Part shown: positions 1 through 6,093 of the stretch, one piece after another
How the letters are laid out: each line of letters starts with the position of its first letter
Position numbering within the stretch: the stretch's first letter is position 1
Sequence record: GQ149088
Length of the DNA: 6,094 nucleotides
DNA from: Escherichia phage St-1
Reading direction: 5' to 3' (one strand)
The notes under the pieces: generated by a model
Databases searched by the model: none
The model's input: the letters and a program-made list of their open reading frames with translations, nothing else
Told to the model about the DNA's origin: nothing
Translations under genes and position numbers: made by a program

Positions 1-64
1 TGTTGACATTCCCTGAGCCCTTATGAGACTCTTGCTTCAACGAAATGAAGTAGGAGTCTTTTTT

Positions 65-349
65 ATGAAGCCAGCTCACCGCCTTTATCATTCTGTGCTT
101 GGTTCTTGGTTGTTTAAGTGCCCTGTTTATATCCGTTATGAGTACCTTCATCATGGTCGTCTTATCAAGGTTCGCGCCGTTCGTGACCTTTCCCCGCGTC
201 AGCAGTTGATTGCCAATCCTAAAAATTGTTTGACGTCGTTATTGCCGAGATTGACGTTACTCACCTTTCTGTCACTTGGTATGATTTTGAGGCTGAAGAG
301 TATGCCGAGTGTGATTCCGGCACTATGGAACTTCTTCTTTCTCAGGTGA
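65..349 (+). CDS. Hypothetical basic protein, spacer ORF 1; only the N-terminal part (about 65-226) looks coding
   Basis: ATG at 65 preceded by AGGAG (52-56) with 8-nt spacing. From 65 to about 226 roughly 54% of codons end in T (manual count; CGT/CTT/GTT-rich like the known genes). The ORF track starts this frame at 23, but codons 23-64 lack that bias. After about 227 the bias in this frame falls to about 22% although the frame stays open to TGA 347-349. Product begins MKPAHRLYHSVLGSWLFKCPVYIRYEYLHHGRLIKVRAVRDL. No homolog recalled. Confidence 0.35.
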   Translation: MKPAHRLYHSVLGSWLFKCPVYIRYEYLHHGRLIKVRAVRDLSPRQQLIANPKNCLTSLLPRLTLLTFLSLGMILRLKSMPSVIPALWNFFFLR

Positions 350-432
350 ATTCTGGTGAGGTTATTCGTTCTTCTGAAGATCTGTTTGTTGATGTTGATG
401 ATATGGATTGGCTTTATGAGATTGCGGAGTAA
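226..432 (+). CDS. Hypothetical highly acidic protein, spacer ORF 2; start uncertain (TTG 226, internal ATG 325, or reached by frameshift from ORF 1)
   Basis: Frame 1 is open from 226 to TAA 430-432 with about 59% T-ending codons (manual count). Product is Asp/Glu-rich, ending SSEDLFVDVDDMDWLYEIAE. No convincing Shine-Dalgarno before TTG 226 or ATG 325. An in-frame TAA at 220-222 lies immediately upstream. Confidence 0.35.
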   Translation: MFDVVIAEIDVTHLSVTWYDFEAEEYAECDSGTMELLLSQVNSGEVIRSSEDLFVDVDDMDWLYEIAE

Positions 433-435
433 ATT

Positions 436-525
436 ATGGAGACTGTTATCGGAAAATTTATTGCTCTGGCTGTTGTTGCTCTTATGCTGTATGGAATTTC
501 CTGTTTGATTCGGAGGTTCCCGTGA
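436..525 (+). CDS. Hypothetical 29-aa hydrophobic peptide with a single predicted transmembrane helix, spacer ORF 3
   Basis: ATG 436 lies 3 nt after the ORF 2 stop and is preceded by GGAG (426-429, 6-nt spacing). Product METVIGKFIALAVVALMLYGISCLIRRFP has a hydrophobic core and a basic C-terminus. About 48% T-ending codons. Stop TGA 523-525. Confidence 0.35.
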   Translation: METVIGKFIALAVVALMLYGISCLIRRFP

Positions 526-698
526 AATATTTTAGTTTGGTTGATGAACATTATGCTTATTGCCCTGAGACAAGGATTCTGCATATCACTCGTAGTCGTG
601 TTTCTGACCCTCGTTATGAGCGTCGCTTTCTTACTGATGAGGAGCATTTTGCGCTTTTGGATTGGTTAAAAAATCGCCCGACTTATATTAATTCTTGA
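522..698 (+). CDS. Hypothetical 58-aa protein, spacer ORF 4
   Basis: GTG 522 overlaps the ORF 3 stop as GTGA, the same arrangement as the A/C junction, and is preceded by GGAGG (512-516, 5-nt spacing). About 62% T-ending codons (manual count). Product MKYFSLVDEHYAYCPETRILHITRSRVSDPRYERRFLTDEEHFALLDWLKNRPTYINS. Stop TGA 696-698 falls inside the -35 box of the gene A promoter. Not in the supplied ORF track (below its length cutoff). Confidence 0.4.
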   Translation: MKYFSLVDEHYAYCPETRILHITRSRVSDPRYERRFLTDEEHFALLDWLKNRPTYINS

Positions 699-3065: not shown

Positions 3066-4361
3066 ATGTCTAATGTACAAACTTCCGCTGAACGTGAAAT
3101 TGTTGACCTTTCTCATCTTGCCTTTGACTGTGGCATGATTGGTCGTTTGAAAACTGTTTCATGGACTCCTGTTATTGCTGGCGATTCCTTTGAGCTTGAT
3201 GCTGTTGGCGCTTTGCGTCTTTCTCCTCTGCGTCGTGGTTTAGCTATTGACTCTAAGGTTGATTTTTTCACTTTCTATATTCCGCATCGCCATGTTTATG
3301 GTGACCAGTGGATTCAATTTATGCGTGATGGTGTTGATGCCGCACCACTCCCTTCCGTTACTACTACTCAGTATCCGGATGACGCTGGTTATGTTGGTAC
3401 TATTGTTCCTAAGAGCAACCGTATTCCTAAGTTTTTGCATCAGTCTTATCTGAATATTTATAATAACTATTTCCGTGCGCCGTGGATGCCTGAGCGTACT
3501 GAAGCTAATCCTTCAAATTTAGACCGTGATGATTCTCGCTATGGATTCCGTTGCTGCCATCTTAAAACTATTTGGTCTGCTCCTCTTCCTCCGGAAACTA
3601 AGCTCGCTGAGCAAATGGGCATTGAAAGCAATTCCATTGATATTATGGGTTTGCAGGCCGCTTATGCGCAGCTTCATACTGAGCAGGAGCGTACTTATTT
3701 CATGCAGCGTTATCGTGATGTTATCTCCAGCTTTGGCGGTTCAACCTCCTATGATGCCGATAACCGACCGTTGCTTGTTATGCACACCGATTTCTGGGCT
3801 TCCGGTTACGACGTTGACGGTACCGACCAATCTTCCCTCGGACAGTTTTCGGGTCGAGTCCAACAGACGTTTAAACACTCAGTGCCTCGATTCTTCGTGC
3901 CGGAGCATGGTGTCATGATGACTTTGATGCTGGTTCGCTTCCCGCCTATCAGTCCTTTGGAGCATCATTATCTTGTTGGTCGTAATAATTTGACTTATAC
4001 CGACCTTGCGGGTGACCCGGCTTTGATTGGTAATTTGCCGCCACGTGAGATTTCTTATCAGGATCTTTTCCGTGATGGTCGTCCGGGCATTAAGATTAAG
4101 GTTGCCGAGTCTATCTGGTATCGTACTCATCCGGATTATGTTAACTACAAGTATCAGTTACTTGAAGGTTTTCCGTTCCTTGATGATGCGCCCGGTACGA
4201 CTAGTGGTGATGACCTTCAGAAGGCTATTCTCATTGACCATAATGACTATAATGCCTGTTTCCAGTCTCAGCAGTTGCTTCAGTGGAATAATCAGGCTCG
4301 TTATAATGTCAATGTTTATCGTCATATTCCTACTGTTCGTGATTCTATTATGACCTCTTGA
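3066..4361 (+). CDS. F: Major capsid protein F
   Basis: 431 aa, alignable along its whole length to phiX174 F by recall (MSNVQTSAER, ALRLSPLRRGLAIDS, YGFRCCHLK, SIDIMGLQAAYA, QFSGRVQQT.KHSVPRFFVPEHG, TRDSIMTS). AAGGA lies 7 nt upstream. Confidence 0.97.
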   Translation: MSNVQTSAEREIVDLSHLAFDCGMIGRLKTVSWTPVIAGDSFELDAVGALRLSPLRRGLAIDSKVDFFTFYIPHRHVYGDQWIQFMRDGVDAAPLPSVTTTQYPDDAGYVGTIVPKSNRIPKFLHQSYLNIYNNYFRAPWMPERTEANPSNLDRDDSRYGFRCCHLKTIWSAPLPPETKLAEQMGIESNSIDIMGLQAAYAQLHTEQERTYFMQRYRDVISSFGGSTSYDADNRPLLVMHTDFWASGYDVDGTDQSSLGQFSGRVQQTFKHSVPRFFVPEHGVMMTLMLVRFPPISPLEHHYLVGRNNLTYTDLAGDPALIGNLPPREISYQDLFRDGRPGIKIKVAESIWYRTHPDYVNYKYQLLEGFPFLDDAPGTTSGDDLQKAILIDHNDYNACFQSQQLLQWNNQARYNVNVYRHIPTVRDSIMTS

Positions 4362-4364
4362 TTC

Positions 4365-4393
4365 ATGGGCCTTCGGGCCCATTAAGGATTTTT
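4365..4393 (+). terminator. F-G intergenic hairpin with UUCG tetraloop, followed by a T-run
   Basis: ATGGGCC (4365-4371), TTCG loop, GGCCCAT (4376-4382): a perfect 7-bp stem. TTTTT at 4389-4393 is separated from the stem by 6 nt and overlaps the gene G ribosome-binding site. Confidence 0.5.
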
Positions 4394-4394
4394 C

Positions 4395-4958
4395 ATGTAT
4401 CAAAATTTTGTTACTAAGCACGATACCGCCATTCAGACATCCCGTTTTTCTGTTACTGGTAGTATCACTCCTGTTGCGCCTACTGGTAATATCCCTGTTA
4501 TCAATGCTGGTAATATTACTGCTGAGCATGCTGTTGTTAATCTTTATGCTAATTTGACCGCTGGCACTTCTTCTGATGGTTCTTTTATTGTTGCTATGAA
4601 GGTTGACACCTCTCCTTCTGACCCTAACTGCGTTATCTCTGCTGGTGTTAACCTTAGCTTTGCTGGTACCTCATACCCGATTGTTGGTATTGTTCGTTTT
4701 GAGTCTGCTTTTGACCAGCCCACTTCTATTGCTGGTAGTCAGATTGAGCATTACCCAATTGAAATGTCTGTAGGTTCTGGTGGTGTTTGTTCTGCTCGCG
4801 ATTGCGCTACTGTTGATATTCATCCTCGCACTTTTGGCAATAATGTTTTTGTTGGTGTGATTTGTTCTAGTGCTAAATGGACCTCCGGTCGTGTGCTTGG
4901 TACCATCGCTACGACTCAGGTTATTCGTGAGTATCAGGTCCTTCAGCCGCTTAAATAA
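4395..4958 (+). CDS. G: Major spike protein G
   Basis: 187 aa with phiX174 G-like motifs (RFESA/RFESS, DC.T.D..PRT.GNNV.VG, VI.E...LQPLK C-terminus). AAGGA lies 6 nt upstream. Confidence 0.95.
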
Positions 4959-5041
4959 AAGGCCGCCGCACTCCCGGTTATGTGTCTGCCCAGTGTAGGG
5001 CGGACCGAGCCGTACGGAGATACCCGATAAACTAGGAACGT

Positions 5042-5068
5042 GGAAGGCGTTAGCCGCCTTCCCTCCTG
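5042..5068 (+). promoter_or_regulatory. Candidate complementary (-) strand origin element: hairpin plus adjacent CTG primase start site
   Basis: GGAAGGCG (5042-5049) pairs with CGCCTTCC (5055-5062), a perfect 8-bp stem with loop TTAGC, followed by CTG at 5066-5068, within a 136-nt GC-rich G-H intergenic region. DnaG-dependent origins of G4-type phages are hairpins with a CTG initiation site. Confidence 0.4.
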
Positions 5069-5094
5069 CTAAGCCCAAAAAAGGAGCTTACAAT

Positions 5095-6093
5095 ATGCTT
5101 GGAAGTATCATTGGAGGTATTGGCTCATCGCTGCTCGGAGGACTTGCTTCCGGCGGTATCTCCAGTCTCCTTAATAAAATGTTTAGTAAAATGCCAGAAC
5201 ACGCCGCCTCTTCTGCTGGCCTTACTAATGGTCAAGGAACTATTGGTATGGATACTGACGCTGGCATTCAGTCTGCTATTCAGGGCTCTAATGTTCCTCC
5301 TGCTGGTCAATTGCCTGCCTCTAATACCTCTGGTGTTATGGCTGATGCTGGTAATATGATTCGTAATGCTGGCAGAGCTTTGCTTGACGGTACGATTCAG
5401 GCCGGTTCTGACAAGGTTAAAGAGGCTCTTATTGATAAGTTGGTTGGAGGTAATGATGCTAAAGACCGAGGAAAGGCAACCCGTGATTACTTGGCAGCGG
5501 CTTTCCCTGAGCTCAACCCATGGGAACGTGCTGGAGCTGATGCTTCCACTGCCGGGTTAGAGTCTTCCGCTCAGAATCAACAAAAAGAGATGCTTAAAAT
5601 GCAACTGGATAACCAGAAGGATATTGCCAAGATGCAGATGAATAACAATTTGCAGATTGCTGGCATTCAGTCCGCTACATCTCGCCAGAATACGAAGGAT
5701 TCTGTTTATGCCCAGAATGAGATGCTTCAGTATAATCAACGTGAGTCGCAGGCACGCGTTGCGTCCATCCTCGCCAACACTGACCTTACGACTAAGCAGG
5801 CCACCCATGAAATTATGAGGATGGCTCTTACCCGCGCTCAGGAGACTGGTCAGCATTTGACTAACTCTCAGATTATGGCTTTGGAGAAAAAGGTTTATGC
5901 AGAAATTGGCAAAATTCATCAAGATACTCAAAATTCTCGCTATGGTAGCTCTCAAGTTACTGCCGCAGCGAAAGACGTTACGAATATGATTACTGACGCC
6001 TCTTCAGGCTTTGCTGATTGGGCCTCTCAGCAGTGGAATTCATTCTTTAAGGATGGTAAGTCTGATGGTATTCCTCTCAATACCAGAAAATAA
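5095..6093 (+). CDS. H: Minor spike / DNA pilot protein H
   Basis: 332 aa with a Gly-rich N-terminus (GGIGSSLLGG) and long stretches matching phiX174 H by recall (AGI.SAIQGSNVP, TRDYLAAAFPELN.WERAGADAS, LDNQK.IA.MQ, IAGIQSATSRQNTKD.VYAQNEML, NSRYGSS). AGGAG lies 8 nt upstream. Stop TAA 6091-6093. Confidence 0.95.
   Translation: MLGSIIGGIGSSLLGGLASGGISSLLNKMFSKMPEHAASSAGLTNGQGTIGMDTDAGIQSAIQGSNVPPAGQLPASNTSGVMADAGNMIRNAGRALLDGTIQAGSDKVKEALIDKLVGGNDAKDRGKATRDYLAAAFPELNPWERAGADASTAGLESSAQNQQKEMLKMQLDNQKDIAKMQMNNNLQIAGIQSATSRQNTKDSVYAQNEMLQYNQRESQARVASILANTDLTTKQATHEIMRMALTRAQETGQHLTNSQIMALEKKVYAEIGKIHQDTQNSRYGSSQVTAAAKDVTNMITDASSGFADWASQQWNSFFKDGKSDGIPLNTRK

Follow-up and report, generated by a model that had tools for sequence, protein, structure and literature searches.

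The interval between genes H and A of Escherichia phage St-1 (GQ149088), an alpha3-type microvirus (Microviridae, Bullavirinae, Alphatrevirus), was analysed in the setting of the complete, circular genome of 6094 bases, which is the whole window referred to below. The interval measures 757 nt from the H stop to the A start in St-1, whereas its phiX174 counterpart has 63 nt and contains no open reading frame (ORF). We conclude, with a probability of roughly 85%, that the St-1 spacer is a clade-specific accessory cassette of three protein-coding genes, ORF1 (65-432), ORF2 (436-525) and ORF3 (522-698), all on the + strand, and that this cassette, about 10% of the genome, would be expressed at low levels and dispensable; we infer a role in interaction with the host. 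The preliminary description of this sequence had correctly put the phiX174 interval at about 60 nt and had located reading frames at 65 onward, 226/229-432, 436-525 and 522-698 of the + strand. Those coordinates held, although the number of genes they represent is three rather than four.

The same description had called the spacer unannotated and by implication new. The block has, however, been known since 2006. Two papers (PMC2935103 and PMC3324380) attribute its clade-specific putative genes to Rokyta et al. 2006, and the former counts five conserved reading frames. St-1 has the same locus, the same ORFs and the same clade restriction as that block, but three frames rather than the five of the literature are supported by the tests given here, and ORF1 is frameshifted in St-1. 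The term "unannotated" is accurate for alpha3, phiK, WA13 and most other records, but not for Lilleven (MK629527), where all three ORFs are annotated as hypothetical proteins. An alpha3 record of the 1980s-1990s marks four ribosome-binding sites in the block. The 2026 description of a new alphatrevirus gives the ten canonical genes only, the phiX174 annotation has been declared complete by synthesis (PMC6883844), and the accessible literature contains no published function for the block.

Three reading frames under selection

The spacer was aligned across 14 sequences: alpha3 (two versions), phiK, Lilleven, NC3, NC35, NC28, NC29, WA13, WA45, ID21, ID32, ID62 and a genome from dog faeces. Four metagenomic genomes widened the set. 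The records nearest to the St-1 genome are Lilleven (95.0%), phiK (94.0%) and alpha3 (92.4%), and the authors of the Lilleven genome likewise name St-1 (NC_012868) as its closest relative. ORF1-3, at 65-698 between the H stop and the gene A promoter pA, keep this gene order in 18 relatives. Across 13-17 relatives that differ by 5-30% in nucleotide sequence no stop codon interrupts the three frames, the exceptions being ORF1 of an older alpha3 record (X60322) and a read-through of ORF3 in phiK, both described below. Indels are confined to the sequence before the ORF1 ATG, the ORF2/ORF3 junction and the gene A promoter, and, X60322 apart, none lies inside a frame in these relatives. The stop-start junctions are rebuilt rather than lost in ID32, NC29 and the genome L019 (Logan SRR20337160, 820-1475). 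In ID32 and NC29 the ORF2/ORF3 junction has been remade with an ATG start and ORF3 still has 58 codons, and L019 keeps the order H-ORF1-ORF2-ORF3-A with TAAATG and ATGA junctions. The L019 ORF1 encodes 129 aa that are only 34% identical, whereas ORF3 is about 95% identical and ORF2 nearly unchanged; judged by these identities, evolution or replacement is much faster for ORF1 than for the two genes next to it in this cassette.

Substitutions follow the three frames. Variable sites at the first, second and third codon positions number 43/34/96 in ORF1, 10/2/9 in ORF2 and 13/7/31 in ORF3, and with the extra genomes included the chi-square test of codon position gives p values of 7e-9 for ORF1 and 1e-3 for ORF3. 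The ratio of nonsynonymous to synonymous substitution (dN/dS, Nei-Gojobori) is 0.19 for ORF1, 0.35 for ORF2 and 0.09 for ORF3. The known genes of the same genomes give 0.05 (A), 0.06 (C), 0.10 (D), 0.14 (J), 0.20 (F), 0.47 (G) and 0.14 (H). The other two + frames over ORF1 and ORF3 have ratios of about 1 or more and many stops. The share of T-ending codons is 54, 59, 47 and 61% in the segments 65-226, 229-432, ORF2 and ORF3, respectively, compared with 39-66% in genes A, D, F, G and H and 31-42% when the spacer is read through in any single frame; this bears out the match of T-ending codons with genes A-H reported in the preliminary description (there about 48-62%). The check proposed there, frame-specific conservation with dN/dS below 1 across relatives, likewise came out positive for ORF1-3. 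By these comparative measures ORF1 and ORF3 are protein-coding beyond reasonable doubt, and all three frames appear to be under purifying selection like that on genes A-H. The statement that the spacer holds real genes rather than filler was thus right in substance (frames kept, no stops or indels, low dN/dS) and wrong in its count of four.

ORF2 (436-525, +) is the weakest case of the three and is a probable protein-coding gene. Its ATG at 436 lies 3 nt past the ORF1 stop (TAA, 430-432) and is preceded by the Shine-Dalgarno (SD) sequence GGAG (426-429). The frame is open, with 28-30 codons and an ATG start, in all 18 other genomes. Second codon positions seldom vary (5/28 versus 24/56, Fisher p 0.03), and the dN/dS of 0.35 comes from few informative sites. 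The product, METVIGKFIALAVVALMLYGISCLIRRFP, is a 29-aa single-pass hydrophobic peptide with a grand average of hydropathy (GRAVY) of 1.43, hydrophobic residues at 8-25 and the C terminus RRFP. With one hydrophobic helix of about 20 residues and flanking charges it has the helix architecture of small single-pass membrane peptides such as type I toxins and phage membrane peptides, which is a shared property only. Its only profile matches were weak (phrog_4546, E 0.023; phrog_12443, E 0.15).

ORF3 (522-698, +; 58 aa) starts with GTG at 522, overlapping the ORF2 stop (TGA, 523-525) in the sequence GTGA, behind an SD of GGAGG (512-516). Ribosome-binding sites at three starts, the 3-nt gap and the GTGA overlap are therefore all present as first described. 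The 58-aa product had been called basic and aromatic; it is indeed aromatic-rich, but it is neutral (isoelectric point (pI) 6.8, with 9 K+R against 9 D+E). AlphaFold2 predicts, with moderate confidence (predicted local distance difference test score (pLDDT) 76.5), a beta3-alpha protein of three strands and one helix. The fold search of the Protein Data Bank (PDB) gave a sub-domain match only, to the N-terminal sheet and helix 1 of OmpR/PhoB-type winged-helix domains (ToxR 8b4b, PrrA, CadC and CpxR). ORF3 ends after helix 1 and so lacks the DNA-binding helix-turn-helix and the wing, and it has no Pfam match. An assignment to the OmpR/PhoB DNA-binding domains was rejected, as helices 2-3, the C-terminal wing and a Trans_reg_C match are all missing. 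ORF1 and ORF3 were also considered as paralogues and this was rejected (hhalign probability 0.8%). In the older phiK record X60323 (522-734) ORF3 runs past its usual stop to 70 codons, which could be a real change or an old sequencing error.

The five frames counted in PMC2935103 raise the possibility of further genes in the other + frames over ORF1-3 (about 99-209, 356-508 and 541-669). Many genomes have these frames open, MG945254 marks one of them, and the frame across ORF2 has a dN/dS of 0.22, below that of ORF2 itself. Their starts and extents, however, are not conserved between genomes and stops interrupt some of them, their dN/dS is about 1 or more outside the ORF2 stretch, and no ribosome-binding site was seen for them. 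Their Leu- and Phe-rich translations are what T-rich third positions give in a +1 frame. Moreover, the synonymous rate of ORF3 is normal, indicating that nothing else constrains ORF3. We consider a five-gene block unlikely and retain three genes.

ORF1 and the missing base after position 228

ORF1 (65-432, +; SD AGGAG at 52-56) is a gene of 122 codons in the relatives that is frameshifted in St-1. Codons 1-55 occupy 65-228 plus a missing base, and codons 56-122 with the TAA stop occupy 229-432. The base between 228 and 229, C or T in the relatives, is present in 14/14 aligned sequences and missing in St-1 only. A single 122-codon ORF1 spans the equivalents of 65-226 and 229-432 in 16 of 17 related genomes, and uninterrupted versions are also found in the four metagenomic genomes wherever ORF1 is present and in 18 protein clusters from public assemblies. 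As written, the St-1 sequence would give a 94-aa product (65-349) of which the final 39 residues are out of frame. Because St-1 lacks this one base, the spacer carries three genes and not four, and the "basic N-terminal segment" and "very acidic protein" of the preliminary description, there assigned to 65-226 and 226/229-432, are two domains of one protein encoded by a single frame in the relatives.

That the two halves could instead be independent cistrons, a basic one (65-226) and an acidic one (226/229-432), is suggested by their different frames in St-1 and by a TTG at 226. We regard four separate genes as very improbable: every other modern genome has one uninterrupted frame of 122 codons (129 in L019), AlphaFold2 packs both halves into one protein (predicted template modelling score (pTM) 0.81) and no ribosome-binding site precedes 226 or 229. 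The tail of the first frame (227-349) has only 22% T-ending codons, unlike any gene in the genome. Programmed -1 ribosomal frameshifting at the junction would also restore an intact product, and an A-rich run (CCT AAA AAT TGT) does precede the junction. However, CCT AAA AAT TGT TTG contains no in-frame X XXY YYZ heptamer, a slip at AAA AAT enters a TGA at once, and all relatives encode ORF1 without a shift, which leaves this mechanism scarcely credible.

The break itself is either very recent or an error, as judged from the state of the downstream frame, which has not decayed: in the second half of ORF1, 6.9% of the nucleotides differ from alpha3, but in the correct frame only 2 of 67 residues do. 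That the base was lost in sequencing or assembly, and that the real phage has an intact ORF1, is a serious possibility to which we give somewhat less than an even chance. The undecayed frame is in its favour, as are natural relatives that are 96-97% identical and have ORF1 intact. There is also a precedent. ORF1 is broken in just one other sequence, the older alpha3 record X60322, where a 1-nt gap near St-1 position ~192 truncates it at 47 codons; the resequenced alpha3 genome, DQ085810.2, has an intact ORF1 and the gap is gone. The X60322 gap is therefore a likely sequencing error, and the alpha3 RefSeq entry NC_001330 probably carries the same one, since in tblastn it matches in two pieces exactly as X60322 does. 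In contrast, the St-1 site (TG^TTT) contains no long homopolymer, a recent loss-of-function mutation in a long-passaged laboratory phage would look identical, and no independent copy of this exact genome was found (an exact look-up of the St-1 products matched ORF2 only).

The two domains differ sharply. The N domain (residues 1-55) is basic, with a pI of 10.2 and a dN/dS of 0.02-0.10 (0.07 for the N half as a whole), whereas the C domain (residues 56-122) is acidic, with a charge of -18, a pI of 4.05 and a C-half dN/dS of 0.31. Around the C-domain helix (codons 81-105) the ratio rises to 0.5-0.85. AlphaFold2 modelling of the closest intact homologue, from an alignment of 18 close relatives only, gave a mean pLDDT of 90 with the pTM quoted above. 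In the predicted structure the very acidic C domain, which has a hypervariable helix, packs against a basic N domain rich in beta structure. In some wild relatives (proteins P0017 and P0018, on contigs of 6.2-6.3 kb) ORF1 is 154 aa long with an acidic N-terminal extension of 32-34 residues. The extension (MKPLTSSEI...) likewise begins with MKP, and it looks like an in-frame insertion directly after the start codon.

Signals for transcription and translation

The spacer is flanked by gene H (5095-6093) and gene A (758-2242, +), with the usual genes between A and H. Directly before gene A lies a pA-like sigma-70 promoter (695-724, +) made up of a -35 TTGACA (695-700), 18 nt and a -10 TATATT (719-724). 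With 11 of 12 consensus matches it is the best promoter-like site of the genome. It is followed by the counterpart of the phiX174 T_H terminator, a hairpin with a T-run (725-757, +; stem 725-731/743-749, T-run 750-754), then CGC and the gene A ATG at 758. This unit (695-760) has the same order of elements as pA/T_H of phiX174, namely TTGACA, spacer, -10, hairpin with a purine-rich 3' arm, T-run and ATG, and confirms the phiX174-like promoter-hairpin unit recognised at 695-757 in the preliminary description. In phiX174 the promoter end abuts the terminator stem; the terminators of that phage are leaky, T_H stopping about 70% of transcription.

A second unit (3-67) with the same layout precedes ORF1. 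It opens with a -35-like TTGACA (3-8, +) directly past the gene H stop and continues with a hairpin and a run of six U found in a terminator scan (25-64, +; 15 bp, arms 25-39/46-60, U-run 59-64), followed by the ATG. The distance from TTGACA to ATG is 56 nt here and 57 nt in the unit before gene A. This first unit differs from pA/T_H of phiX174 in its longer stem of 15 bp and in having no usable -10: no acceptable -10 was found 16-18 nt from TTGACA 3-8, and no promoter-like site was found on the + strand of 1-694. TTGAC is nevertheless invariant in 13/13 aligned genomes although positions 9-20 vary. RNA 1-80, which contains the 25-60 hairpin, folds with -26.6 kcal/mol (z -4.8; 0 of 200 shuffles were as stable), and this hairpin, absent from the preliminary description, is stronger than that at 725-749. 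Its stem is nearly invariant in 13 genomes, and several relatives have an interrupted U-run. No compensatory changes were found across those 13 genomes, and with a stem so nearly invariant covariation cannot confirm the hairpin. From its form the 25-64 element looks like an intrinsic terminator after gene H. The two units suggest that the block came in along with a second copy of the promoter/terminator unit; the suggestion comes from layout only, because sequence similarity among the three units, that of phiX174 included, is low.

The cassette seems to lack a good promoter. We propose that its transcription comes from read-through of the terminator-like hairpin that follows gene H, on the least abundant late transcripts. 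The ORF1 SD lies inside the 3' arm of the hairpin, which buries the ribosome-binding site and would make translation of ORF1 inefficient. Translation of ORF2 and ORF3 would start from their own sites and be coupled through the 3-nt gap and the GTGA overlap. Read-through, the buried ORF1 site and coupling together imply that the products would be made in small amounts. Alternatively, a weak start from TTGACA 3-8 may open the hairpin, which would explain why TTGACA never varies.

A natural variant affects the second unit. The isolate NC35 is viable with a 29-nt deletion (695-729, corresponding to St-1 702-730) by which the gene A promoter has lost its -10 and the hairpin its 5' arm, and no promoter-like or terminator-like site was found in the first 800 nt of its genome. 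Since these signals are missing, gene A of NC35 may depend on transcripts that come through the ORF1-3 block.

The strong conservation of the 25-60 hairpin, and the low variation of 390-520, could be taken to mean that the spacer acts mainly in cis, as an origin, a packaging signal or a regulatory RNA, with incidental ORFs. We give this reading almost no weight in view of the strong three-base periodicity of the substitutions and the preservation of the frames. A scan of the whole genome against Rfam gave no match, and the region 400-540 folds no better than shuffled sequences (z +1.3). A better candidate for a complementary-strand origin is the G-H intergenic region (4959-5094), the most conserved non-coding stretch of the genome, where the mean pairwise difference is about 0.03-0.07 over 4956-5046; in genes G and H on either side it is 0.2-0.35. 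The single-stranded DNA of this region folds into GC-rich hairpins (z -2.4), and we take the region to be the likely primase-dependent complementary-strand origin, as in G4-type phages. If so, the H-A spacer is not needed for that purpose. The place most variable in length among the relatives is the C-D intergenic region (St-1 2476-2501): NC29 has 233 nt from the C stop (2479) to the D start (2713), compared with 26 nt in St-1, and this region may be a second insertion-accepting site.

Distribution, allele exchange and possible role

Homologues were sought in an index of 5.8 billion proteins (single-sequence and profile searches) and 50,697 phage records and, for ORF1, by an exhaustive HMMER search of 1.84 billion representatives. 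Every homologue came from a microvirus contig of about 6 kb or from a fragment of such a genome. The tblastn identities are 74-98% for ORF1 and 86-97% for ORF3, in alphatreviruses only, and ORF2, ORF3 and the repaired ORF1 of St-1 are 86-98% identical to their counterparts in alpha3, NC35 and Lilleven. On the basis of these searches the cassette genes occur in alphatreviruses only. The St-1 paper reports the block to be absent from the phiX174 clade; here its absence was examined directly in phiX174. The St-1 block agrees with the H-A block of the alphatreviruses in position and homology, but the ORF1 frameshift means that its ORFs are not all intact. A pattern-seeded scan of the bacterial and archaeal genomes of GTDB revealed no cellular source of ORF1.

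The absence of a known family that had been noted for these products was upheld, as profile searches with the three proteins of Pfam, PHROGs, NCBIfam and PADLOC gave no usable match. PDB sequence profiles returned only noise, and the search of BFVD with the ORF1 fold recovered its own family only.

ORF1 alleles have been exchanged between lineages independently of the structural genes. Identity between St-1 and phiK is 96-97% in F, G and H but falls to 70% over the C half of ORF1. This half of St-1 ORF1 (229-432) is of the alpha3/NC35 type (90-93%), whereas the structural genes (3066-6093) are of the phiK/Lilleven type, and NC3 and NC35 share the St-1 type of ORF1 (90-92%) although their G genes are only 52-56% identical. 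That the ORF1 C half and the structural genes match different relatives points to St-1 as a mosaic genome, with recombination within or beside the accessory block.

These observations fit a cassette that the core lytic cycle could do without and that would persist in nature through some conditional benefit. Dispensability is argued from phages of the phiX174 and G4 types, which live without the block, and from St-1, which appears to tolerate a broken ORF1. The benefit would most likely come from modulating the host cell or systems that compete or defend, and the variable face of ORF1 would then be the interaction surface; the grounds for a role in host interaction are the absence of the block in sister clades, the tolerated frameshift and an ORF1 patch that is fast-evolving and horizontally exchanged. 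Genes K and A* of phiX174 are small and non-essential (PMC2935103, table). The cassette resembles such non-essential genes of the Bullavirinae in being small, clade-specific, exchanged and, presumably, dispensable for plaque formation in related phages. However, K and A* are overprinted inside essential genes whereas the cassette is free-standing. The "moron" accessory genes of tailed phages are a second parallel, being likewise small, clade-specific, exchanged and dispensable, as the cassette probably is, but whereas a moron is usually equipped with its own promoter and terminator, no good promoter was seen for the cassette.

Several points weigh against this interpretation. With its ribosome-binding site enclosed in a very stable stem, ORF1 may see hardly any translation, and read-through alone leaves the invariant TTGACA at 3-8 unexplained. 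The +1 frame that overlaps ORF2 is also open, with the lower dN/dS (0.22 < 0.35), and support for ORF2 is modest. The searches described above found no homologue, domain, defence or counter-defence profile or structural neighbour that indicates a function. Finally, should the frameshift prove to be a sequencing error, one of the arguments for dispensability would fall away.

A more specific proposal is tentative, and we think it more probably wrong than right. ORF1 would be a counter-defence or superinfection-exclusion factor with a new fold, whose acidic, hypervariable and exchanged C domain binds a variable target of the host or of rival phages, for instance by mimicking DNA to block a host nuclease or restriction enzyme, and ORF2 and ORF3 would be membrane-linked partners. 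The charge of -18, the pI of 4.05 and the hypervariable helix of the C domain, the horizontal exchange of ORF1 alleles and the confinement of the block to one clade are all consistent with such a role. Against it, the overall dN/dS is below 1, acidic domains have many other uses, and ORF1 showed no similarity in sequence or fold to Ocr, to ArdA or to the PADLOC models, nor to any other anti-restriction, anti-defence or defence profile or structure.

The Bullavirinae are among the best-studied viruses, and yet a sister clade of phiX174 devotes about 10% of its 6-kb genome to three conserved genes without an assigned function. The present analysis narrows the frames under selection to three, rather than four or five, and indicates that ORF1 encodes a two-domain protein that is confidently foldable by prediction, for which no structural relatives were found and which has a fast-evolving patch. 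The public records of alpha3, phiK, WA13 and others still lack these genes, and the St-1-type reference sequence carries a broken ORF1, which matters for its use as wild type or as training or benchmark data. If the counter-defence or exclusion proposal is true, the alphatreviruses would be the first Microviridae known to have a dedicated host-interaction cassette, and this could help explain why they, unlike phiX174, include phages isolated or propagated on E. coli K-12.

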